A DNA stretch of 63,863 nt, counting the filler, from Craspedostauros australis (taxonomy: Eukaryota), in assembly GCA_030167865.1 (NCBI GenBank). It is 13 parts of 13 records of this genome, joined end to end, with 100 filler letters (N's around TTAATTAATTAA, not from the genome) between each part and the next. Parts side by side here need not be neighbours in the genome. Positions count along the whole stretch, not along the records: positions 24,579 to 28,745 come from JALAGF010003602.1; 12 more parts are not named here. The stretch is one strand, 5' to 3'. Position 1 is the stretch's first letter; each line of letters begins with the position of its first letter. Below are positions 6,801 through 31,088 of this stretch, piece after piece. The position numbers and the translations under genes are program-made. Below the pieces are notes generated by a model. That model was not told the origin of the DNA. It saw only the letters and a program-made list of their open reading frames with translations, and made no database searches.

Positions 6801-9800
6801 CGTCACTTCTTCCAAGCGCTCCCTGGCCTTCGCCTCGATTTCGTTATCTTCGTCAGTGATTTCCAGCTTATTGAGGGAGAAGTCTCTCACCTTCTTCATA
6901 TCTTCCTCTTGCTGGATGAGGATGGACCAAACGGCATACTTGTAGCGGTCGTTAGAGGAGTTGTTTTGCTTCTTGGTGGCTTGCTTGATGACGGTTTCAT
7001 GATTTTTGGTTTGCAGCTCGAGCTGCGACCTCTGCGCCTTGAGGTTCATTTCGTTCGATTTGCTCACGAGCGATGTCCGCTTGACTTCGTCAATGAGATC
7101 GAGCATCGCGGCTTGTCTAGTCGCTGGTTGCTGGCGCTGCCGCTTGTATCGGCCACCCGTGCTGTGCTTCTCTCCCTCAATTCGGATGGTTGCGTTTGCC
7201 AACGCTGCGTCATGCTCAAGATACGCCTTGAGGCAGTCAACGTCGGCATGCTGGACTGCCACGGAGATGGGACATCGGAAATTTTCGTATTCCCGCCTCA
7301 CCGAGCCGCTGTTGTAGTAGACGCGATTGCCGTTTGCGCGCATGGATTCTTGGAGCTGCTGCGCTCGTGCCTCCCACTCCTCCACTTCGTATGTGAGTGT
7401 CGCGCCTGCCTCGAGAAAGATGGAGACTGCCTCACTGTTGCCGCAGAAAGTGGCAAGGTACAGGGGTGTGCGAAAGCGCGTGTCGATCACATCCAGAGCC
7501 TTGGCCTTGCCACCATGCTTCGCGGCATCTCTTTCCGCAAGCATGCGCAGCAGGTGCAAGGATCGCGGATTGGTGGAGACGGCCAAGCGGTGCCACAATG
7601 AACTCATGTCCATGTCGACGCCTGCTGCGGTGCATCCAGCCTCCATGAGCACATCCAGCATCTCATCGATGAGTGGCTGGCCTTGCTCGCCGCATTCATT
7701 GGCAAAGACGGCCAGCAATGCCAACGAACTCAGACTCTCGTTGCGATCCTTGTGAACGGCACTCTTCTGGACGTCGGCGGAGTAGGACACAAGCAACTTG
7801 ATCATGTTGACGTGTCCCAGCACGATGGCGTATTGCAGCGGGTTCATCTTAATCACCCAGTCGGCGCCATCGATGTCGAAGATGTCCATGAGCACCTCCT
7901 CCTCGCTCTTCTCTTCTTCCTCTTCCTCCTTCTCGTCTCCGCCATCTTCTTCGCCTTCGTTGTCTCCGCTCTTCACATCAGACTTGTCCTTCGATGTGGC
8001 CATGGCTTGTGCGGCGAGCACCTTGCGCTTCTCCAGGATCATCTTGGCTGTGTCCACGTCGCCGCGGATGCCACACAAGTGCAACGCCGTGCGACCATCG
8101 GCCAGACGGTACTTCAAGTAGTCGGAGTCCGCATCCTTGTGCTTGAGGAGGATCTCTGCTGCCGCCGTGGAATGCGCCAGCACCGCCACGTGCAAGGCGG
8201 AACGACCCAAGAAATCACGGGACGTGAGCAGCACCTTGGACTCCTCTTCTGTCTTGCATGCCGCGAACATCTTCTCGATCTGCGCCACGTCGTTGGCAAT
8301 CACGGCCAGCATCAACGCCTCGGTGGCGCGGGACATGTAAGCGCCCTCGGTCCAGTCGCTCTCCGTGATGGGGTTGAAGGATCCGATCTGCTGACGTCCA
8401 GGATTGTCCACGAGCCACGACAGCTTGCCATGGACCATGGCTTCCATTCCTTCCGGAATGGTGTCTTCGGGGAACGGGGGGTCGTCGGGGAAGGGATCCT
8501 TGATGACTTCCTCCATGGATCCCACAGCGCAGACGTGGATCTTGTATTCACGCTCGCATGCCTTGACGCGGTTGTCGGCGGTGAATTCGATCTGGTTGAG
8601 GATGCGGTCCTTCTTCTTCATCTGCTTCTCGATCCTCTTGGCCGTCCAGTTGGGACCCCAAGGCAAGAAGACGGTGGAGTAGTTGGAGGCGTGCGTGGCA
8701 GCGAAAGCGGGGATCATGGTCTCGACGCCCTCGGCACGTTCGACGTTGCGGTCGTCACCAGCGATCTTGTAAATCTTGCTGCGGACCATCCACTCCATGC
8801 TGCCGTAGTATCCGCTTTTGGCCTTCGTCTTGAGCTGCGCCTCGATGCGGTAACGGAGACGTTCCATGGGGGTGCGGAGACGCTCCAGCATGAGAAGGCG
8901 AGACAATCCCTTGGTTTGATCGAAGCGTTTCTCGTAAAGGAACGGGTCCACACGATCACGGTCGAGGTTGGGAACGGCGACTGTTGGTTTGGTTTGGATT
9001 AGATTTGATTGGTTTGGGGAGATGAAGGTGCGACGGAGATGAAAGTAGAGGGGGTATTCGTATGGAGTAGAGATATTGGTTAGATTGGTGTGGCGATGAA
9101 GGGGCAATGTACGGAAGGCAGAAATCTACATTGTGCTCGAAGGAAGACAGGCAACAAAGAGTACTCTTGGCTGCAGACACTCACCTTCAAAGCCACGTTG
9201 GGCGTACTTTGCCAAACGCATCTCGTAGCTTGGGGAACGACGGGTCATGTCCACCGTGTTGCATTGGGTCTTCATGGCCAATGCCGTACGTGGGCAGACA
9301 TACACCTCCTTGCCATCGTAACCGACGGCACAGGCATCGACATCAAATCCCATCAAGATCTCGGAGGGAGAGTTGTAGAGACGCAGCACGATCTGAACGT
9401 GGCGGAATGGGTACTGCGACACCAAGGTGACGGCATGTGCCGAACGGAAGGCACGGATCTCGTACGGGTTGGCGGCCTGGACGGCATCGTAGATCTCAAG
9501 GAGCTTGGCTTCCGCCTCTTCCTCCGTAAGTCCGTAGAGGAAGAGATCGATGTCCGATCCGGGCAAGTAGTCATCGTGGAAGTACTTGCGGCGCTTGACG
9601 TGGGTGGCGGACCGACCACCGCCCTTGATCTCTTCTGGCAACGGTGCCATGCATCCAGCAACGGCGCCGCCAGCGCAGAAGACGTTGTTCCAATCGATGA
9701 AACGGAGCAAGCCTTCGGAGAAGCAATCCCAGGAGATCTGGAAGTCCTTGAGGTTGTCGACGGTGGTGAGATTGCCGACGGGGATCTTCTTGCGGAACTT

Positions 9801-10247
9801 GTTGGCGTCGGCCTTGGCGGCCTTGGCAGCGGCGCGGTTGCAGGCGCTTTCGTCATCGTCCTCGCTATCCTCCTCGTCGTCGTCGTTGTCATCGTTGTCG
9901 TCGTTGTCATCGTTGTCATCCTTCATCTCGTTGTTGTTGTCGGTTGCATCACCGCCCTCATCGAGGGGGAAGCAACGCGGGTTGGTGTCCTCATCCTTGA
10001 ACTCGGAGAGGCGCTTGAAGAGATCGGGGGTTCCGAAGGCGTTGAGGAGAAAGACGAAGGGATCGTCAATCTCCGGCACCTCCCAGGAATCGCGCTTGCG
10101 AGCGAAGAGTTCTCGGTAGAGATTCTCGGATTCGATGGCCTTGCTGCGGATGGAATCCAAATCCGCGAAGGACTTGATGTCGAGGACGTCTTGGATGAAG
10201 TCCTCCACCTTCATGGTCTTGGTGGTGGTGGTCAAAGATGCTTCCAT
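3897..10247 (-). CDS. 2048-aa protein: N-terminal pol-beta-fold nucleotidyltransferase-like domain plus multiple ankyrin-repeat clusters; two exons (10247-9185, 8980-3897)
   Basis: Intron 9184-8981 (GTGAGT...CAACAG, phase 1) joins RGFE to VAVPNLDR in frame (6147 nt). NTase signature VFCAGGAV...SDIDLFLYG...FDVD; ankyrin motifs GRSALHVAV, GRTALHLC, NPLQYAI, RTPLYLA, GYTPLFLAV, HSPLMIA, GVTPIDAA. Confidence 0.85.
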
Positions 10248-11881
10248 GATGGATGGGTTGGTGGTTGGTCAGGTTGGGGCTGTTGGGGGCTGTTGGTTGG
10301 TGATGGATGGCAGATGCTTCGCAAAGGGGGAGTTGGCTGCTTGTGCTTCAGAAACTTGCTATCGTTCGATTGACTGCTGTGGATGCGTCACTCGGGTGGT
10401 TGCAAGTTGTGAGAGGTTGAGGCAAGGAAGGTTGTTGCTCGCGCTTGCCCGTGATGCATTGGTGTTGAGGGTCTGCCTCTGTGTGTTTGGTTGCATTAAT
10501 GTTGCTGTGGGTGTTGCTGTGGGTGTTGCTGTGGGTGGAATGAACTTTCGATGTGGCCTTGCCTGTCAGTTGCTTGGTGACCTCGATTCCTCTCACACTG
10601 CCCACCCATGGATCTTTGTGGCGTGGTGGCGACGCTCTTCTTGCGTTTGTTCTCCGTTCCTCCACTGCGTTGCGTTGTGTTGCTCTTGTGGGTTGTGGGT
10701 TGGGAAGGTGGTGGTACCAGCTACGGGTTCCTGGTACAATCCGTACTGGTGTGGTGCCACGAAAAATTCGCATCCAATCATCCACATCGTATCTTTTCCT
10801 GCGTCTGACGTGACAGTTCTTTTGGTTGCGGATTTTTTTCATTCTGGCGGCACAGCCCGCGAGCTGCGTCTCGTTCCACAAGCAAGAAAGTTGCCGCCAC
10901 CTATCTACTCTCCTTCTGTGGGAATGGCGCAAGGAACCAAGACACCATCACGCACTATGTTGGCCAGTGCAAATGTCACACAAAGCTCTGAGTCTGTGAG
11001 GAACACTCAACACCCACCAGTTGTAGAGGAGGGTAGTTGCGACGCAACACACATGTATGAATATGAGGAGAGAGTAGAGAGTAGAGCACAGTAAAGTAGA
11101 GTACGAATATTGGAGCAATCTACTCAATCTATCATGCTATACTCTACTTCTCCACGATCCCTGCGCTCGTTGTGGAACGTCCAATCATAGGTACGTAGTG
11201 CAGAGTCCAAGCATACTGCATGGTCTGTGTATCGCCGTACGAATGCACTTGCTTCTCTTTCCCTGCACTCGGTCTGTCGCTATGCATGTGGAGATACTCT
11301 TCTTCTCCAACCATAGCCAGCCTTCGCATTGCCTTCCGTGTGGCGTCTCTCTCTCTCTACATTCGATAGATAGAGATTCAACTGATGCGACATCGTTGAC
11401 AACTTCTCCGAGTTGGCAGCGCACGCGCGTTGGGCGCATCGAAAAGTCTCAAAACAGAAGGCCCACTTTGTCGGTACACGACTGACAGACACCAGCTAAC
11501 GTGCGCGACATTCAAATTGGTCGCTCTGTATGGAACACAAAAGCCAGAGACTTTGTCAGAAAAGCCCTCGCGTGTCGCGATCAGCGTGGACACATCTCCG
11601 TGTGCCTCTGTTGCCTTCCTGGAAGTTGCAGTTCACGACCACGCACGGCAACACAGCAACACAGAGTAACACAACAACACAGAGTAACACAACAACACAG
11701 AGTAACACCGCATCAGAGGAATTCAAATGGCTCCGCAACTGCAAACGGTGCACACACAGAACCAACACCAAAGGTGACCACTGGCACAGCCACAGCCACA
11801 ACCGCAACAACACAATCAAAACAACGACATCCAAAGCCACCAGCGGCAACAGCAATAGCAATAACAACAACAGCAACCACA

Positions 11882-21452: not shown

Positions 21453-22974
21453 TCACTCCTCTGTAACAACAGCCATCCCCTCCAGACCCTGCTCCTCTTC
21501 TGCTGCTGCCTCTTGCTCCATCAATCGTTTCGCTTCGGCCACGACCTCCTTGCCCCGATACTCCCATTCCTTGCGATTGGCGCGTGCGTAGTTCAGATAC
21601 TCGTCGCTCGACTTGCCAAACACTCCGCAATCCTTCAGCTTCTTCGCCAGCGGGATGATGTAGAAGTCGAAGAACCCCAGCTCGCCCTCGTACCAACCAT
21701 CCAGTGGGTTCGATTCAGCCCGACCTGCCTTGTACGCGGCGTAGCACTCCTGCAGGAACCGCTGGTTCCACTTGCGATACACGTGCCAATGCTGCATGGT
21801 GTGTGCCACGTCGCTGGCCTGGATCAGATGCTCGATCACGATCGTCGCCCTGCGGTTCGTGGCATCCTTAACCGATTCGTGATGGACCTTGTCGAAGGCC
21901 TTGTCCCATCGGTTGTTGCGCAGCTGCTTCAGCTCCTTGTCGACGATGTCGGTGGCCATGACGCCGTTGACGACAAGCTGCCGGAAGCGTTTCAGCTCCG
22001 TCGGTGTGGCGCAGATGCACGCCCTGAGGTCCCTGTATTCGTCAGACACGAACAGCTCCCACGACAGCGCCAGGGAGTTCTGTTCCGCGACAGATCTGTT
22101 GTTGTAAATCTTCGCGATCCGGGTGTTCTCCTTGACGAGCTGCGCGTTAGGGATGCCAGCATGATCCACATCGTGGATCATGGCCGAGAATGCGCAGGCG
22201 AGCTGGGTGAGCGGATCGGACGTGATGCCGTACGTGTGATCATGCAACGTGGCTGCGACGTCTCTGTTATCGCTCCTATCCCCATCGCCATCATTGCCAT
22301 TGTCATCGTTGGTTGCTGTGCTGTGCTGTGTCGCCTGCTTGATTTCGTCGAGATCAGTAGGTGCCACGATGCGAGCCAGCAGCTTGACGACGGACATGGT
22401 GACATGCGACGCATGCTCGAAGTTATGGAACGCATTGTCTCTGTACATCATGGCGATGTTGGACACGAAGGATCGAAGCTGGTTCACGATGGTTAGATCG
22501 ATGGTAACGTGATCAGGATCCATCTCCATGCGCCCGACCTGTTGGTCGTATGCCGGTAGGTGGATGATCTCTTCGACTTCATCGAGCGGATGGAGATGGT
22601 TGGAATCGAAGTTGTCCACAACTGCCGTACTCTCTTGGCCATGGCTGGAGTTCTTGTTCCTGGACAGCAACGACTGTGACGACTTCGGGGAAAGGGACTG
22701 CTGTTGCTGCTGCTGCTGTGTGGCCTCCCTACGAGCCACGATGTGTCGGATGATGTGCAGCAACATCTCGACGTTCCACTCCACCAACCGCGATGTCTTC
22801 TCTCGGTAGTTGATCATGGCTTTGGAATCGGTCCCTGCCGCACCTTGAGCATGCTTGCCGTGGCCCGATGTCTTTCCATCGCCTCCGGTCAGGTGAATGT
22901 TAATCTCCGAGATGGTACCCTCGCTCGTGACACTCTCCTCGTCGGATGAGCGCTTCGATGATCGGATCCAGTAG
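21453..22974 (-). CDS. Second copy (allele or paralog) of the same PDE exon
   Basis: Contig 21176-23129 repeats 19122-21075 at offset 2054. Identical protein; six synonymous SNPs seen. Confidence 0.88.
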
Positions 22975-23806
22975 CTGTTGTGGCATGCGTTGGTCGAGTT
23001 TTGACAATGGGAGCGTGCAAGCATATGCAATACAGGATAATGGATAGGCACAGGCACAGGCATAGAAGTAGTTGCAGCACCAACAGCGTTGATCGAATCG
23101 GTGAAAAAGGGGGATGGTGACGTGCGTGTNNNNNNNNNNNNNNNNNNNNNNNNNNNNNNNNNNNNNNNNNNNNTTAATTAATTAANNNNNNNNNNNNNNN
23201 NNNNNNNNNNNNNNNNNNNNNNNNNNNNNGTTCCGTAGCCGAGGTCCTCCCAGAGTTTACACTCTCGCTTGGAGGCGGCGTGTTGTACCCATCCCAAGTT
23301 AGGCCCGGACCATATCTCAATGATCAACCGAGGCCGTAGATTGGTCTGGCAATGGAGGACCCAGTTACGCCATTCCGTGTGCTGGACCCCGTGGGCGACC
23401 AGAAAGTCCACCGGAAATTTGTTCAAAATCCGGTGGGACACTCTTGCCGTCGACCCAAGGAAACGGGTCGAGTCCGGATAAGTCCGGAGTGGTTGGGCCA
23501 GGTTGCCGTCGTGGGTGCAGAGGACGTGCTCGAAAGCAGGCCAGGTGCTTTCGGTCATGTGTAGACCAAAGTTCAGGGTGGCGTAGCGCAGCGAGCAGGT
23601 AGAGGACTTAGGGAGTTGTTTTGTTGAAAGTGCAACGATATCTGCTAAGTTAGGGCTTAGGAGTATGTCGCTCGGGGCGTCCGGGGTGTCGGTGTGCGTG
23701 TGTTGGTGGTCTGTGGTGATGTCGGTATCAGTGGTTGTTGAGTGGTGTCGAGGTGGGCACGAGTTGTGGACAGCACAGAGAAGCAAGAGTCAAGGCAAAC
23801 ACATGG

Positions 23807-24478
23807 TTAGGCATCATCCTCTTCTCCGCCTCCGCGCTTCGAAATTGCTTCCTGCAGGATGCGGGTGATAACGTCGGCGGCCTTCTCGCCTTGGTTCACG
23901 CATTTCGCGACCTGTTTGGCTTTCGCCATCGCCACCTTCTTCTTGAAGAGATACCCGAATGGGCAGCCGCTGTCGCGGATCTCATGGACCTTGCTGTTCC
24001 CGCCGCAGTGCTTGCACTTCTTCCGACCCGTTTCGGTTGGGGCGGTGTCAGTGTCCTCCTTTGGTGCCGAGGGCGAACCAAGGGTGGTGAGTGCACGCTG
24101 CTGGAACTTCTCCAAGACCTTCAGGTTGCACCAGCCGCCGCGCGCTCCTTCACGCACGATGACGTAGGTGCGGAAGATCATGAGGTTGCGCGAGGCCGCG
24201 AAGTTGCGTGCGTCGAAGAGGGCCTTGGCGTAGTGCTCGTGGTACACGAGGGCTGAGTCCTCCCACCCGTTGGTTGTCTTGAATGCCTCCTCTTGTAGTT
24301 TGAGGAGGAGTTCATGGTAGTAGGTCATGAACAGCTTGAGGACAGCGACCCATCCCCCGCCTTGCTGGTAGAGAGTGATTTGCTCGTCGGAGTAGTAGCC
24401 GTGGCGGAGGATGTGACCCACATCGTTGAGGTAGCGGGTCATCACGTCGTCGCGGATGCTGTTGAAGTCACCGGCGAG
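23807..24478 (-). CDS. Gag-like ORF1, 5'-truncated
   Basis: C-terminal zinc knuckle-like CKHCGGNSKVHEIRDSGC; lies immediately upstream of pol after contig merging. Confidence 0.65.
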   Translation of the reverse strand, partial: LAGDFNSIRDDVMTRYLNDVGHILRHGYYSDEQITLYQQGGGWVAVLKLFMTYYHELLLKLQEEAFKTTNGWEDSALVYHEHYAKALFDARNFAASRNLMIFRTYVIVREGARGGWCNLKVLEKFQQRALTTLGSPSAPKEDTDTAPTETGRKKCKHCGGNSKVHEIRDSGCPFGYLFKKKVAMAKAKQVAKCVNQGEKAADVITRILQEAISKRGGGEEDDA

Positions 24479-24578: not shown

Positions 24579-27500
24579 CCCGAGCGACATACTCCTAAGC
24601 CCTAACTTAGCAGATATCGTTGCACTTTCAACAAAACAACTCCCTAAGTCCTCTACCTGCTCGCTGCGCTACGCCACCCTGAACTTTGGTCTACACATGA
24701 CCGAAAGCACCTGGCCTGCTTTCGAGCACGTCCTCTGCACCCACGACGGCAACCTGGCCCAACCACTCCGGACTTATCCGGACTCGACCCGTTTCCTTGG
24801 GTCGACGGCAAGAGTGTCCCACCGGATTTTGAACAAATTTCCGGTGGACTTTCTGGTCGCCCACGGGGTCCAGCACACGGAATGGCGTAACTGGGTCCTC
24901 CATTGCCAGACCAATCTACGGCCTCGGTTGATCATTGAGATATGGTCCGGGCCTAACTTGGGATGGGTACAACACGCCGCCTCCAAGCGAGAGTGTAAAC
25001 TCTGGGAGGACCTCGGCTACGGAACNCAGCTCAAGACCCTCCCCAACCAACGAATGGGTGGAGCGGTATCAGTGACTTACACGGTGGTGATGAGGTCGGC
25101 AACAACGTGGACGGCATCTGGCATCGACTGGCCAGACCTCCAACCTGCATCTGAACGAAGCATGGCGAACTGTCTTCGTCATTGCGGAGTTCCTCGACGA
25201 TGCTATATAACGAAGAGCAACGCCCAGTCGGTCATCGACAGCGCCACATCCGCGATGCCGATGGACCGGTTTGCCCTTATTCAGACGGCTAGAGGCGTCC
25301 GACGCCTCTTCCCAGACGAGTTAGGGAAAGCCCTGGGCAGCTCGATCCCCGGAGAGGCGCTCAAGCATGTGAAGTGGCGAGTGCTTTTCCACACTCCGTC
25401 GCAACACTTACTCGAGTACCTCTCCACACCGCTGATGGACTTGGCTCGCCATGTACATCAGCACTCTGAACACTCCCAACCTGCGACACAGACGACAAGA
25501 CGACGACGACGACGACGACGACAACAACAGACGCCCCTCCATGACGACAACAACGACGACCTCCAATATCGATGGACTCTGCCGGACCTCTCCCCTGATG
25601 GCGACTGGCACCGACTCCGCGTACATAACCTGCGGAAGGCTTGTGCGCACTACGGAAACCGATCCACCGCCCTACTCAAAGACGGATTCAACGACTTGCG
25701 TATTCACCGTACCAACTACACCGACACGCATCCCGATCCCAAACAACTACGAGTCCTCTGGTGGGAATTTCCTCCACAACACTGGGACCACCTACGAGAA
25801 GGGAGCCCGATGAACTTTTTGGACACTCCCGAATTCGGACACCACGATAATACCGACATGACTCCAGAACAGCAACAAGTGGCCGCGGACTTCGTCGATG
25901 AACTCCTCAACCTTGGAGTTGTCGAACCACAAGACCCCCTCCATCCGGTGGTCGTCAACGCCCCGCTATTCGCCTTGCCGAAACCCATGCAACCCGATCA
26001 ATGGCGTATCATCGCCAACATGCGAGAGAATCGCACGAACGAATTTATTGGGGCTGATCCAACCGTCTTCCCAAAAAGCCGCGACATTTTGAAACAAATG
26101 TACCACGGCGGCTGGTCGGCGGTTGTGGACGCCTCGAAATATTTCTACCAATTCCGAACCCGTCCCGACGAACGACGATTTCTCGGCATCCAACACCCAA
26201 TTTCGGGCGAAATGTACCAATATGCTGGACTACCGATGGGATCTAGCCAATCACCGGCTATCGCATGCAGGTTTGGAGCCGCTTTCCTTCGGCAACTACG
26301 CGAATGCTCTCAGCTATACCAAGGCACTCATCGCCCTAACATGTGGTGGACAACATTCAGCCAAGACCTGGCCTACGATCACACCAAAGGCCAAGGATTG
26401 GTCGCCATCGGATCGGATGGACTGCCGGCCGCCTTCGTGTGGGCCCACTGTGATGACTTCATCATCCATGGACCCACGCGGCGCAAGACCGCGGCGGCGC
26501 TATCAGCTTTCCTTGATCTATCAGTGGACTGCGGCCTGCTCTGCCACCCCGGCAAACTTACACCGCCCAGTCAAGTCGTCAAGTACACCGGATTGATTTT
26601 CGATACCACAGCCACCCCACGCCTACGCATCCCGCCTCTCAAACGAGACAAGATCGTCGCTGTGATGGATTACATCTCGGCTACACCCGCAAGAGTCTCC
26701 CGGCTCGCCCTCGCGGTCCTAGCGGGCATGCTAGAAAGCGTGGCAGAGGCCACACCGTCATACCTCGGTCGCAACTACCTACAAGCTCTATACGCCCTCG
26801 TACATCCACATGAGTGGGATCAACCAGATCTCCCCTACTTCAGCTACACGGCCATCACACCCGCGGTCACACAAGACCTCCAATGGTGGCGAGCGGCACT
26901 CACCAACGACACCGCACGGAGCGGTCATGCAACACGGACCGGCGTCCTCGTCAGCAGCTTTGGTGACGGCAGTGGTACAGGCACCGGGGGTACCATCCTC
27001 TTCCCCAACCAGCCCTCATGCATGTGGATGGGTACATGGTCATCCCTTGTGGCTACACACCACTCCTCCAACTGGAAGGAGCTACGTACTCTGCTCAGCA
27101 CCCTGCAACAGGTAGCCAGCAACCCAACAACCGCCGCCGACGTCTTCGGCGCCACCTTTTTCTACTTCACCGACAACATGTGCACCTACTGTGTTGTCGA
27201 TGGAGGCACTTCCACCTCACCGGAACTGCACAAGCTGGTCCGGAAGATCAAGCAACTCGAGCTCCGCTTGTCATGCCACCTTCAGGTCATCCACATCCCC
27301 GGCACTGCCATCATCACAGAGGGAACCGACGGACTCAGCCGCGGAATATGGATCAACGCCGCCCACCAACGGCCAACATCATCACAGATCCTATCCGCCT
27401 GTCTGGCCCCGACACCACTCCAGGAGCAGCATGTCCCTCAGATTGCATCACTCGCCTTCCCCGACACTCCCACGACCATACTACTCCGTCGGTGGGACTG

Positions 27501-27873
27501 TCCATGGAACCCCGAGGACTGCATGAACCGTATCACCCTGTGGGCACCACCACCGGAGCTCGCCTACCAGCTGATCTACTTCCTACTGGGGTGCTGGGCA
27601 GAGCAACCTCTGGACACTGGATTCGTCATCCTCGTCCCACGAGTGCTTCAACGCACTTTCGTCAGACTCTCACGTCACCTTGTCCGAGTTGGAGTGTTCA
27701 CCAACGACGATCTGCATCTCTCTTCTTCTTCTCCTCTCAATATTCCTAATCTTCTCCTCCGCGTCTCTCCCCACACTCGCTCTCTCACTCCTCCCAGACT
27801 GGACTTTGCTCCCCGCTCCCGGAATCGACGGCATCACCAACGGATCGCCGAGCGTCTGCACGGGTTGTGCTGA
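24579..27873 (+). CDS. Pol: degenerate C5-MTase-like N-terminus, reverse transcriptase, RNase H and DIRS-type adenine-methyltransferase-like C-terminus (frame opens further upstream, in contig 5 at about 23786)
   Basis: RT motifs NAPLFALPK..WRIIANM, VVDASKYFYQF, LPMGSSQSP, HCDDFII, KYTGLIFDT; RNase H FGDGSG, SSNWKEL, FTDN, HIPG..TDGLSR; C-terminal LWAPPPEL...FVILVPR resembles the DIRS MT (FPP..ILVxP) domain. Confidence 0.9.
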
Positions 27874-28745
27874 GAGCATCAACCGACACACAGCAGCACA
27901 CCAATGCCACTTCGCCGACACCGGATTCACGCACAATGGTGTCCTCTACCAAGCATGCCACACCCGATATCACAAGCTATGCTGCCGGGTGGGACCTCCT
28001 TTCCGAACACGTCTACACAACCATAAGGGTCTCACGCTGCCACCCAACCTCAATATTTTGGGTCTCTTCGTGTGCGAGGCATGCACGGTCCGAGTACATC
28101 TCCAGCGAGAATTGGTCCCCAGCCACACGGACCTCCATCTCCTCCGTTTGGAACGCATGCGCATCATCGACCTAGCGCACAATTGGGCGTCGGGTACTCT
28201 CACCACCTACAGCAGCAAGATTCGAGTACTACACAAGTTCGGTCTCCAACATGGCGTCCCTACCCTGCAGCCACCCGACATCCAATCGCCACCCTACTCT
28301 GAGACAATCCCGATCATGTGGGCGCAGGAGCACTACGCCACACAGGTACCCTCACGCAGGAACACACTTGGCGACCAAACCATCAAGTTCAGCACCGTGC
28401 GTGGCCTGCGCAGCGCAGCATCAGCGTTCGGCACATGGAACATGTGCATCGCGCATCCTGAACGCGCCATGCTCGACGCCAAGCAACGCCCTGTTATCGT
28501 CGATGAATGCCTTCCAACAGACCACCTCGGATACTCGATGCTGACACAAGGCATGCGAACACGTCTTGGCGAGGATTCGCGACCATCAGCCGCACTGCTC
28601 TCTCGCCACGTCCACTTCATGGACCGATGCTTCCTGCATCAATACCAACATGCAGTCACAGCACAACAGCGACGAACAGCGGCAATGGCAGGCATCATCA
28701 ACCTTGTGGGATGGCTGGGATGGCTACGGGCCGCAGAAGCCTTCG
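27797..28745 (+). CDS. Tyrosine recombinase with N-terminal Cys/His zinc finger, 3'-truncated
   Basis: AHNWASGTLTTY (core-binding helix), KFSTVRGLRSAASAF, GWLGWLRAAE (first catalytic Arg). Overlaps the pol end in the +1 frame. Confidence 0.8.
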
Positions 28746-28845
28746 NNNNNNNNNNNNNNNNNNNNNNNNNNNNNNNNNNNNNNNNNNNNTTAATTAATTA
28801 ANNNNNNNNNNNNNNNNNNNNNNNNNNNNNNNNNNNNNNNNNNNN

Positions 28846-31088
28846 ATCAGGATGGCAATACCGCGATGCAGCTTGCGGCCAGACATGGTCGCATGGAGAT
28901 CGTCAAGCGTTTGTTAGAGTCATGCGAACCAAGCATGGGCTCTTCAAATCCTTCCATCGTGGCCGCGCTCCATCTTGCATCTTCGAAAGGAGATCTGGAG
29001 ATGGTCAAGCAAGTGGTGAAGTCACACAAACGGACTGTCCAAGTGAAGGATGAGAATGGCGAGACATCACTGCATCGTGCATGTTCCAATGGCCATGTGG
29101 ATGTCGTGAGGTACTTGGTGGAATCAGGCAACGCGAACGTAAACGCCAAAAATTGCAATCGCGATACTCCATTGATTTGTGCATGTTCCAATGGCCATGT
29201 GGATGTTGTGACGTACTTGGTGGAAACAGGCATCGTGAACGTAAATGCCAAAAATTGCAATCACGATGCTCCATTGGCTTGTGCATGTTCCAACGGCCAT
29301 GTGGATGTCATCAGATACATGGTGCAGTCTGCCAAGGTAGATGTCGACACTACCATGAAGGGAGAGTCCACTCTACTTGATTGGGCATGCATGGGCGGCC
29401 TCTCGGATGTTGTGAAGTGCCTTGTGGAGTCAGGCAAGGTCGACATCAATAGGCAAGGAAAGGACGGCATGACCCTCTTGCATCACGCATGCGCCGCGGG
29501 TGACTTGGCCACTGTGAAGTTACTGGTGGAAGCAGGGAATTCAAACATCAACGCACAAGACAACAGCGATCTCAGTCCACTCCATCTCGCGTGTTCGAAC
29601 AGCCACATGGATGTTGTCAAGTACATTGTGGAATCGACGAATGCAGACATCAACATTCAAAGCAGTTCCCATGACATGCAGACCCCGCTTCACGAAGCAT
29701 GTATGAAAGGCGACTTGGGCGTGGTGAAGTGTTTGGTAGAGTCAGGCAGATCGGACTTGACTACCATTACCACCTGTGGTGGGACCCCACTTCACATTGC
29801 ATGCTTGAACAACCACATCGACGTGGTTGATTACCTCTTGAGATCACCCGATGCAAATGTCGACGTCACTCTCCAAACTAAGAAGGGTTCCACACCACTC
29901 GTTTATGCAGCTCAGAATCTGGAGTTGGAGATGGTGAAGTATTTGGTGGAGACATGGGACGCAGATGTCAATGCGTGTGATAGCGATGGCATATCTGTGC
30001 TCTGCCTGGCATGTAGGTCCTGCCGGCAGGATGCTGCCATGTACATGATTGAATCAACGAATGCAAACATCAATGCTACAGATGAAAATGGTTGGACTGC
30101 ACTTCACTATGGATGCGCCGGAGGGAGTTTGAACATGGTGAAGGCCTTGCTGGAGTCGGGCAAGATGGATATCAATCACTGCAACCGTGCCCAAAGCACC
30201 CCACCACTCTATCTTGCAATGGAGCACAGGGAGACAGATGTCGTCAAGTATATCTTGGAATCGACCGATGTAGACTTCAACGTCCGAGATGACAGAGGCG
30301 CATCCATGCTTCATATCGCATGTAAGGACGGGAGGTTTGATATCGTCGAATGGTTGATTGAATCGTACAACGTTGCTATCGAAGCAACAGACAATGGAGG
30401 CGCCACTCCACTTTACACTGCATGTGAGTACGGCTATTTGAAGATTGCGAAGTACTTGATGGAATCGTGCAACGCAAACGCGGATGCCAAAGACAACTAT
30501 GGGAGAACTTTACTCCATGCTGCGTGTTTCTCGGGACATGTTCCCATGCTGGAGTGCATTTTGAACTCAATCAACGCAGACATCAACGCCCAAGATGACT
30601 TCGGCAGCACTCCGCTACTTCACGCATGTTACTCTGGTCGTGCGAACGCTGTGCAATACATGTTGGAAACAACGCAAGCAAATGTCAACGTACAGGACAG
30701 GCGAGGTGACACTCCACTCCATCTTGTGGCTGGGCTCGCGGACAAATATTCCCCCGTGAAATTCTTGGTGGAATCAAGAAACGCAGACATCCATGCAAGG
30801 AATAACAAGGGCGATACCCCACTTCACAAGGCATGTGCCGGCAACAAATGGCGGGTTGTCAAATACATCTTGGAATCAACAGATGCAGATGTCAATTGCC
30901 AGAACGATGCGGGCCAAACTCCGCTGCATCTGGCCAGTCAACGCGATAACTTGGATACCGTCAAGCACTTGGTGGAAGTCCGCAATGCAGATGTTGATAT
31001 TCTGAACGACGCTGGTGACACTGCGATGACGTGCGCGGCTTCGTCATGGTGGCGCCTAGCCTACAAGTACTTGAAGGAGCGTTCCTGA
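28846..31088 (+). CDS. Ankyrin-repeat protein, 3' part (full gene about 951 aa with its 5' end in contig 8)
   Basis: About 20 tandem repeats of G.TPLH.AC..G..D.VK.LVE; stop at 31088. Confidence 0.92.

Follow-up and report, generated by a model that had tools for sequence, protein, structure and literature searches.

A divergent PHD-like zinc finger precedes the recombinase in a family of tyrosine-recombinase retrotransposons from diatom and marine sequences

Results

A C4HC3 zinc finger lies directly before the recombinase

The DNA analyzed in this work (hereafter, the window) is a stretch of 63,863 nt from Craspedostauros australis (GCA_030167865.1), in which 13 contigs are joined by N...TTAATTAATTAA...N linkers. 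One of these contigs (24579–28745, JALAGF010003602.1) carries a reverse transcriptase (RT)/RNase H open reading frame (ORF) and, in a second frame, a C4HC3 zinc finger followed by the N-terminal part of a tyrosine recombinase, which is cut by the contig end at 28745. Within the 63,863 nt, no second copy of the finger-recombinase was found by tblastn. A first-pass annotation of the window had placed a C4-H-C3 finger here, in frame before the core-binding domain of the recombinase, and this was borne out: the translation of 27797–28747 contains SVCTGCAESINRHTAAHQCHFADTGFTHNGVLYQACHTRYHKLCCRVGPPFRTRLHNHKGLTLPPNLNILGLFVCEACTVR, the same string as the annotation had quoted, all eight ligand codons could be read without any stop between finger and core-binding domain, and the finger frame remains free of stops through the downstream domain up to the contig end. 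The coordinates of the finger and of the features around it are collected in Table 1; residue numbers are counted from position 27797.

Conservation of the ligands was analyzed in an alignment (A3) of the window protein with 132 distinct homologs, 29–49% identical to it, whose sequences extend into the N-terminal region; 47 proteins, all of them starting at profile position 84 or later and hence downstream of the finger, were left out. Counting for each ligand only the rows with at least three residues upstream of the column, retention was 24/27 for C21, 28/31 for C24, 47/49 for C37, 68/70 for C54, 67/71 for H59, 74/74 for C62, 97/100 for C93 and 100/101 for C96. Hence, the ligands predicted by the first-pass annotation are not lost among homologs, each of them being retained in 89–100% of the informative rows. 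Of the 27 rows long enough to include C21, 23 have the complete set of eight and four (P0008, P0119, P0169 and P0127) do not. The nine remaining Cys or His positions of the window finger are occupied by Cys or His in just 0–33% of A3 rows. Judged from these comparisons, the eight-ligand pattern is not a matter of chance.

The finger profile was also searched for in longer proteins. It gave 159 matches, of which the 120 listed are all recombinase-length proteins or fragments; therefore, the finger was seen in no other architecture. That the finger is a fixed module placed directly before the core-binding domain of a tyrosine recombinase is well supported.

The predicted fold resembles PHD fingers

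The structure prediction that was to decide on the proposed PHD-like fold came out in its favor. An AlphaFold2 model of residues 1–316, obtained with A3 as alignment, had a predicted local distance difference test score (pLDDT) of 91.5 and a predicted template-modelling score (pTM) of 0.79, and a finger-only model (27839–28120) had a pLDDT of 89.7. In the whole-fragment model, the finger and the stretch that joins it to the first long helix score 93–98, with the residue blocks within 91–110 at 96–98. Judged from pLDDT and pTM, the junction between finger and core-binding domain is predicted to be free of any low-confidence linker. In both models the long stretch between C3 and C4 forms an extra beta hairpin.

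When the finger was compared with 48,161 solved chains by VIA-align, a method independent of Foldseek, just 115 chains reached a Z of at least 2. The PHD finger of Pygo ranked first (Z 5.6; root-mean-square deviation, rmsd, 2.0 over 55 of 62 residues), that of BPTF second (Z 5.0), and ORC1b, DPF2 and ATXR5 occupied ranks 3–5. Among the matches listed, 34 of 50 titles name a PHD finger, and the RING finger of Slx1 (Z 2.9, rank 43) lies far below them. With the finger alone, Foldseek aligned PHD fingers with template-modelling (TM) scores of 0.61–0.67 and rmsd of 2.7–2.9 (Pygo: TM 0.67, rmsd 2.8); LIM and FYVE domains superpose poorly, with rmsd of 9–12. The ten nearest named Atlas clusters, found by language-model features and taken as a lead only, are all PHD or extended PHD (scores 0.83–0.86). 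With the whole fragment, Foldseek yielded no match in PDB at E ≤0.001 and none in BFVD, and a wide VIA-align search matched just the helical hairpin 263–314 (Z up to 6.6).

The models hold no zinc, and we infer the zinc pairing (ligands 1, 2, 5 and 6 with one ion; 3, 4, 7 and 8 with the other, as in a cross-brace) from the order of the ligands. The models and the structural matches support a PHD-like fold, predicted to be fused to the recombinase. Together with the conservation of the ligands, they make it well supported that 27857–28084 encodes a genuine two-zinc finger, predicted to be of the cross-brace type.

The finger departs from the standard PHD finger

Fifty-nine unique fingers were extracted with a pattern that demands all eight ligands, so that ligand presence in this set is given by construction. 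Their spacings are 11–13 residues for C2–C3, 12–20 for C3–C4 (mode 16–17), 4 for C4–H5 and 29–32 for C6–C7. In a canonical PHD finger, C3 and C4 are separated by 2–4 residues. The PHD spacing claimed by the first-pass annotation thus holds for the order of the ligands, C4HC3, and fails at C3–C4, which in the window finger comprises 16 residues. A Tyr directly precedes H5 in all 59 fingers, and the residue two before C7 is Phe in 58 of them and aromatic in every one. In PHD fingers, the Trp of the methyl-lysine cage usually stands two residues before H5; here that position is aromatic in 2/59 and Trp in none. H3-binding PHD fingers are typically acidic. None of the 59 fingers is net acidic: their net charge ranges from 0 to +10 (median +4), and their estimated median pI is 10.2. 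The loop between C6 and C7 contains invariant motifs of its own, G-x-P-F-x-x-R and G-L.

The sole Pfam match in the window protein was to C1_1 (E 0.065). One family member matches Pfam Prok-RING_1 (E 0.0015). The RING-H2 chains retrieved from PDB by the finger profile were aligned over C37...C54-x4-H-x2-C; the His that serves as fourth ligand in RING-H2 fingers, two residues after the third, is present in 0 of 32 aligned fingers, the position being T, S, A, V or I. As the Pfam PHD model does not match, the spacing is altered, and the charge and cage features differ, we call the finger PHD-like and treat it as a divergent family of its own, outside Pfam PHD.

The downstream domain belongs to a tyrosine recombinase

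Downstream of the finger, the window copy extends just as far as the first catalytic Arg (Arg I), the remaining enzyme being lost at the contig end. Aligned by hhalign with XerD/XerC/FimB/FimE/Cre/lambda Int, A3 gave 194 collinear columns with a P of 0.0018 and a probability of 15%; core-binding helices were paired with those of XerD, WLGWLR with Arg I, and TKS with the Lys of the beta hairpin. With Cre as the only partner, HxxR and Trp are aligned, weakly (E 0.12). The landmarks of the enzyme follow one another in A3 homologs as R (121/129), K (110/125), H (73/114), R (93/111) and W (94/100), and the Tyr is found in 88 rows at W+13, so that the catalytic order R, K, H-x-x-R, H/W, Y is present in homologs. 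Pfam Phage_integrase matched 1 of 105 members (E 0.03), and PHROGs and NCBIfam returned nothing relevant for 12 full-length members. Among the Atlas neighbors of one full-length homolog are clusters with Phage_integrase, ALOG or core-binding domains in some of their members. Searched against PDB sequences, the whole-family profile matched antibody chains alone (E 0.067 or worse), which were judged spurious.

Upstream, Pfam RVT_1 was found at 26056–26598 with an E of 1.2e-6 and 28.8 bits, 0.8 bit under the cut-off of 29.6. The recombinase profile match, the ordered landmarks and the RT ORF upstream lead us to assign the element to the tyrosine-recombinase retrotransposons; the finger does lie, as annotated, before a tyrosine recombinase, which in turn follows an RT ORF.

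Table 1. Features of the finger-recombinase element in the window.
Feature	Position	Strand	Basis
C4HC3 two-zinc finger, PHD-like fold, first to last ligand codon	27857..28084	+	Translation, ligand conservation, AlphaFold models, structural matches
Finger ligand codons 1–4	C21 27857–27859; C24 27866–27868; C37 27905–27907; C54 27956–27958	+	Residue numbers from 27797
Finger ligand codons 5–8	H59 27971–27973; C62 27980–27982; C93 28073–28075; C96 28082–28084	+	Residue numbers from 27797
Linker helix, helical core-binding domain and first catalytic motif WLGWLRAAEAF (28712–28744, Arg I)	28085..28744	+	Contig limits, profile alignment
RT/RNase H ORF	25255..27873	+	ATG of MPMDRF (start picked for its similarity to P0256); TGA at 27871–27873
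Conserved leader of the finger frame (DWTLLPAPGIDGITNGSPSV), without ATG	27797..27856	+	W-[TS]-x-L-P recurs in related loci
Dual-coding overlap of RT tail and finger leader	27797..27873	+	Both frames compared in 29 loci; phase-specific variation
Probable gag-like ORF of the same element (neighboring contig)	23807..24478	-	CKHCGG...H...C knuckle; BLASTP to the ORF of locus L023

The finger frame overlaps the RT/RNase H ORF

The finger-frame leader lies over the final codons of the RT/RNase H ORF, the RT frame being one base back. The tail of the RT ORF, ...RLDFAPRSRNRRHHQRIAERLHGLC*, is conserved and extends, in its own frame, across the start of the finger: in relatives, the same bases encode R-W-H-R-x-Q-A-E-x-x-R-G-L-stop in the RT frame and D-G-T-G-N-K-P-N-x-C-x-G-C in the finger frame, both of them conserved. 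As the two share their bases, the first zinc knuckle overwrites the LRGL motif of the RT. Dual coding spans about 25 codons, with the finger frame at +1 to the RT frame. Sixteen loci have an RT ORF of 400 or more residues; in every one of them this ORF lies upstream, the finger frame is at +1, and the RT stop ends 13–61 nt past the first base of C1.

From the Trp codon (27800) onward, variation is highest at the third positions of the finger frame (1.51 vs. 0.86 and 0.78 bits). Over D-G-T-G-N it is the RT frame whose third positions vary (1.44), and after C8 it is again the finger frame (1.81 vs. 1.00 and 0.59). By this measure, the finger frame is under selection from Trp onward.

No conserved ATG was found in the finger frame across the related loci, and the window copy contains none from 27575 to the finger; in relatives, Met occurs at non-equivalent positions, and several loci have none in the stretch compared. 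Given the overlap with the RT ORF and the want of a conserved ATG in its frame, the finger may be an internal part of an RT-RNase H-finger-recombinase fusion. Of the proposed location at the recombinase N-terminus, the position before the core-binding domain is thus upheld; the N-terminus itself holds with reservation, as the finger may be internal. P0040 (967 residues) is a single ORF that runs from RT/RNase H into finger and recombinase, the register switching right after R-L-D. P0119 and P0127 switch frame later, have lost finger ligands and look like decayed copies.

In the window, an AG at 27796–27797 follows a pyrimidine-rich tract (27776–27797), and in 27 of 29 loci an AG lies at most 14 nt upstream of the Trp codon. 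The 20 nt before the AG are mostly 65–95% pyrimidine, and just 35% in L007 and L015. Tract and AG look like a splice acceptor, but the tract is weak in some loci and falls on an Arg codon that is conserved in the RT frame. The finger-recombinase would be produced as an RT-RNase H-finger-recombinase fusion through a +1 shift or, alternatively, from an mRNA processed at the upstream AG; a +1 shift, splicing and unconventional initiation are all possible routes of expression.

The element belongs to a large unannotated clade

A word-indexed search with the window protein retrieved 34 proteins, 36–48% identical to it. Scanning 1.84 billion representatives with a hidden Markov model (HMM) built from their alignment gave 1,626 proteins at E ≤0.001, 463 of them at E ≤1e-30; the family comprises these 1,626 clusters at 50% identity. 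One member carries a source name that assigns it to the diatom Cylindrotheca closterium. Related loci, 42 in number, were fetched from metagenomes with an 11-row alignment. The retrotransposon family with the finger occurs in diatom and marine sequences, and there is good support for placing the recombinase in a large and unannotated clade of tyrosine-recombinase retrotransposons that have a gag-like ORF, an RT/RNase H ORF and a recombinase ORF.

The probable gag-like ORF of the window element lies on the neighboring contig. The starts of the two adjacent contigs (23230–23676 and 24579–25025) are 100% reverse-complementary over 447 nt, and a single N at 25026 directly follows this common stretch. 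From this match we conclude that the two contigs probably overlap, the first being reversed, which brings the gag-like and RT ORFs of one element together. The gag-like ORF resembles, weakly, the ORF upstream of the RT in locus L023 (BLASTP, E 5e-4 over 112 residues); it had no Pfam match. A CKHCGGNSKVHEIRDSGCP stretch within it resembles a zinc knuckle. No methyltransferase family was detected by Pfam at E ≤1 in the 947-residue RT ORF, and in this the element layout resembles that of Ngaro. Elements of the DIRS order have terminal repeats, either inverted repeats plus an internal complementary region or split direct repeats; the contig in the window ends within the recombinase, before any such repeats would be reached.

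L023 (10,348 nt), in which RVT_1 matches with an E of 2.2e-4, has direct repeats of 127–173 nt at both ends: it contains the same 127 nt at 1–127, 10049–10175 and 10222–10348, and it closes with a tandemly repeated unit of 173 nt. These repeats could reflect a circular form or assembly, a tandem array or assembly, or terminal direct repeats. Positions 59–339 hold arrays of an 11-nt GGCGCCTATGG-like repeat, and the opposite strand (7755–9593) has a 612-residue ORF without Pfam match.

The linkers of the window are at positions 2298, 19066, 21120, 23174, 24523, 28790, 37612, 42438, 54770, 56981, 61227 and 62770. Because the window consists of 13 joined contigs and is not one molecule, features on different contigs need not be neighbors in the genome. 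Two neighboring contigs carry what appear, on reading the translations by eye, to be ordinary eukaryotic host genes: a long ankyrin-repeat protein at 28846–31088 (plus strand) and a protein with an HD-type phosphodiesterase-like motif at 21453–23129 (minus strand).

Discussion

A possible role for the finger

In this work we describe a zinc finger of PHD-like fold on the recombinase of a retrotransposon family. We tentatively favor, at somewhat less than an even chance, that it serves as an accessory domain by which the recombinase docks on DNA or nucleosomes. What leads us to this proposal is the combination of a confident junction to the core-binding domain, the absence of net-acidic fingers, the missing cage residue and the remodelled C3–C4 segment. 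The finger is joined to the core-binding domain with no low-confidence linker and is never net acidic and usually basic, and on these two features we propose that it would extend the substrate-binding surface of the recombinase. It would contact DNA, or nucleosomal DNA, close to where recombination takes place, whether at the element junction or at the target, and would thus act as an accessory docking domain, in the manner of the arm-binding domain of lambda integrase.

Several observations weigh against this interpretation or against the assignments on which it is built. No Foldseek E-value for the finger was significant (all >0.6), and the top VIA-align score, with its Z of 5.6, is modest. 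Pfam PHD (PF00628) matched 0 of 140 members (0/35 at E ≤0.1; 0/105 at E ≤0.05), and from PDB the sequence profile of the finger retrieved just weak RING-H2 chains (E 0.07–0.7). Neither finger nor recombinase was recognized by Pfam, PHROGs or NCBIfam, and the whole-model fold searches, performed with a fragment cut by the contig end, found no recombinase folds. The best PHD matches, Pygo and BPTF, are histone readers, so that a reader function keeps some probability. The proposed DNA contact is deduced from the charge of the finger and from its confidently modeled junction. Finally, RNAalifold found 0 conserved pairs in 29 junction sequences, which gives no support from RNA structure for a frameshift.

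The first-pass annotation had suggested a chromatin-guided recombinase. In such a scheme the finger would bind a histone tail or modification, tether the recombinase-DNA complex and guide integration, as chromodomains do in chromoviral integrases. The fold matches (Pygo, BPTF, ORC1b, DPF2 and ATXR5) are histone-reading PHD fingers, the two aromatic signatures before H5 and C7 are retained in all 59 fingers, and PHD fingers have been reported in other retroelements, namely Gypsy-7a_cRei and CR1-like LINEs (figure legend and reference list, respectively, of PMC9940879). We nevertheless regard this role as unlikely: histone tails are basic, whereas none of the fingers is net acidic, the cage position is aromatic in just two and never Trp, and Pfam PHD matches no member. 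The C3–C4 knuckle, next to which H3 pairs with the PHD sheet, is replaced by a hairpin of 12–20 residues. The sequence features tested thus give no sign of histone-tail reading, a role we do not favor, and we do not think that the finger is a canonical methyl-lysine reader of H3 tails. It is likewise doubtful that a clade-wide chromatin-docking finger, in diatoms and other marine protists, recognizes a nucleosome or histone feature and steers recombination of the circular DNA copy into the genome, with a programmed +1 frameshift in the dual-coding stretch.

The finger might instead serve protein-protein contacts, aiding assembly of the synaptic tetramer of the recombinase or recruiting a host protein. 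Retroviral and long terminal repeat (LTR)-element integrases carry an N-terminal HHCC zinc domain, and the finger could be likened to it or to a RING-type E3. The weak RING-H2 chains are the sole PDB sequence-profile matches, one member matches Prok-RING_1, and the Pygo PHD finger at the top of the fold matches was solved in complex with a partner domain. We consider this quite improbable, as the fourth-ligand His of RING-H2 is absent from all 32 aligned fingers, RING chains such as Slx1 rank far below PHD fingers in the fold searches, and all RING-type matches stay below significance. More remote still is that the finger lies outside the mature recombinase, translation starting at the conserved Met of LERMR after it and the apparent finger reflecting constraints of the RT frame or of the RNA. 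The lack of a finger-frame ATG in the window copy, the non-equivalent Met positions (or their absence) in relatives and the overlap of the first knuckle with the conserved LRGL of the RT frame are in keeping with it. Six of the eight ligands, however, lie past the RT stop, where just the finger frame is open, and are retained in 94–100% of rows; variation sits at finger-frame third positions starting with the Trp codon and again after C8; AlphaFold folds the stretch with high confidence; and no conserved RNA structure was found.

Comparison with known systems

The finger shares with PHD fingers such as those of Pygo and BPTF (PF00628) the C4HC3 order, the intervals of four residues from ligand 4 to His and of two from His to ligand 6, and the aromatic residues before His and two before ligand 7; the best structural matches (Z 5.6 and 5.0) cover nearly the whole target domain. 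It differs from them in the C3–C4 spacing of 12–20 residues with its extra hairpin, in its failure to match Pfam PHD (0/140), in never being net acidic and in the missing cage Trp. With RING-H2 fingers it has in common the predicted cross-brace arrangement and weak profile matches over (P)C-x3-[FY]H-x2-C; unlike them, it has no fourth-ligand His (0/32) and shows the PHD-type spacing between ligands 4 and 5 and weaker fold matches.

As in the DIRS order (DIRS1, PAT, Ngaro, VIPER; classification features from PMC4157794), gag-like, RT/RNase H and tyrosine recombinase ORFs lie on one strand, with overlaps between ORFs; no DDE integrase was seen in the element. The DIRS1/PAT subgroup has a methyltransferase after RNase H; here none was detected, which resembles the Ngaro layout. 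In that classification of tyrosine-recombinase retrotransposons, zinc fingers are a feature of gag (PMC4157794), whereas here the finger is on the recombinase. The nearest precedent is the insert of ALOG-type DIRS1-like recombinases, described by Iyer and Aravind (2012; PMC3537659) as a single zinc ribbon (HxxxC + CxC) between core-binding helices 2 and 3 and predicted there to add DNA contacts. In both cases a retroposon tyrosine recombinase has an extra zinc module in the N-terminal region with which it binds DNA; the ribbon is inserted within the core-binding domain, whereas the two-zinc PHD-like finger precedes it.

Similar in concept is the chromodomain on chromoviral (Ty3/gypsy) integrases, to which a targeting role is ascribed in a preprint (10.64898/2026.05.21.726589): a chromatin-type module is fused to the integration enzyme of a retroelement. 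The chromodomain, however, has another fold, is C-terminal and belongs to a DDE integrase, and it is there that the targeting role has been described. PHD fingers within retroelement polyproteins are mentioned in PMC9940879, for the pol of Gypsy-7a_cRei in a figure legend and for CR1-like LINEs in a title of the reference list; these are other element classes with other integration enzymes, likened here by description and not by sequence. Another figure legend (PMC9977147) lists PHD and YR among the domain labels for several transposons; a single element there may combine them. In the full-text literature searched, which does not cover subscription journals, we found no description of a PHD finger on a tyrosine-recombinase element. 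The architecture thus appears, as the first-pass annotation had anticipated, unusual for DIRS-type elements, no such finger-recombinase fusion having been found in the literature searched.

Significance

Standard domain libraries recognize neither the finger nor the recombinase; hence such elements will be missed or mis-annotated in the genomes of diatoms and other protists. The overlap with the RT ORF provides a clean case in which to study how a downstream retroelement ORF is expressed without an ATG. The choice of target by tyrosine-recombinase retrotransposons is poorly understood. For LTR elements and LINEs, accessory targeting domains have been documented well; in the literature searched, the ALOG zinc ribbon is the sole accessory domain that we found described on a tyrosine-recombinase enzyme. 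The finger is a small and well-defined module, and whether its partner is DNA, the nucleosome or a histone tail is directly testable.

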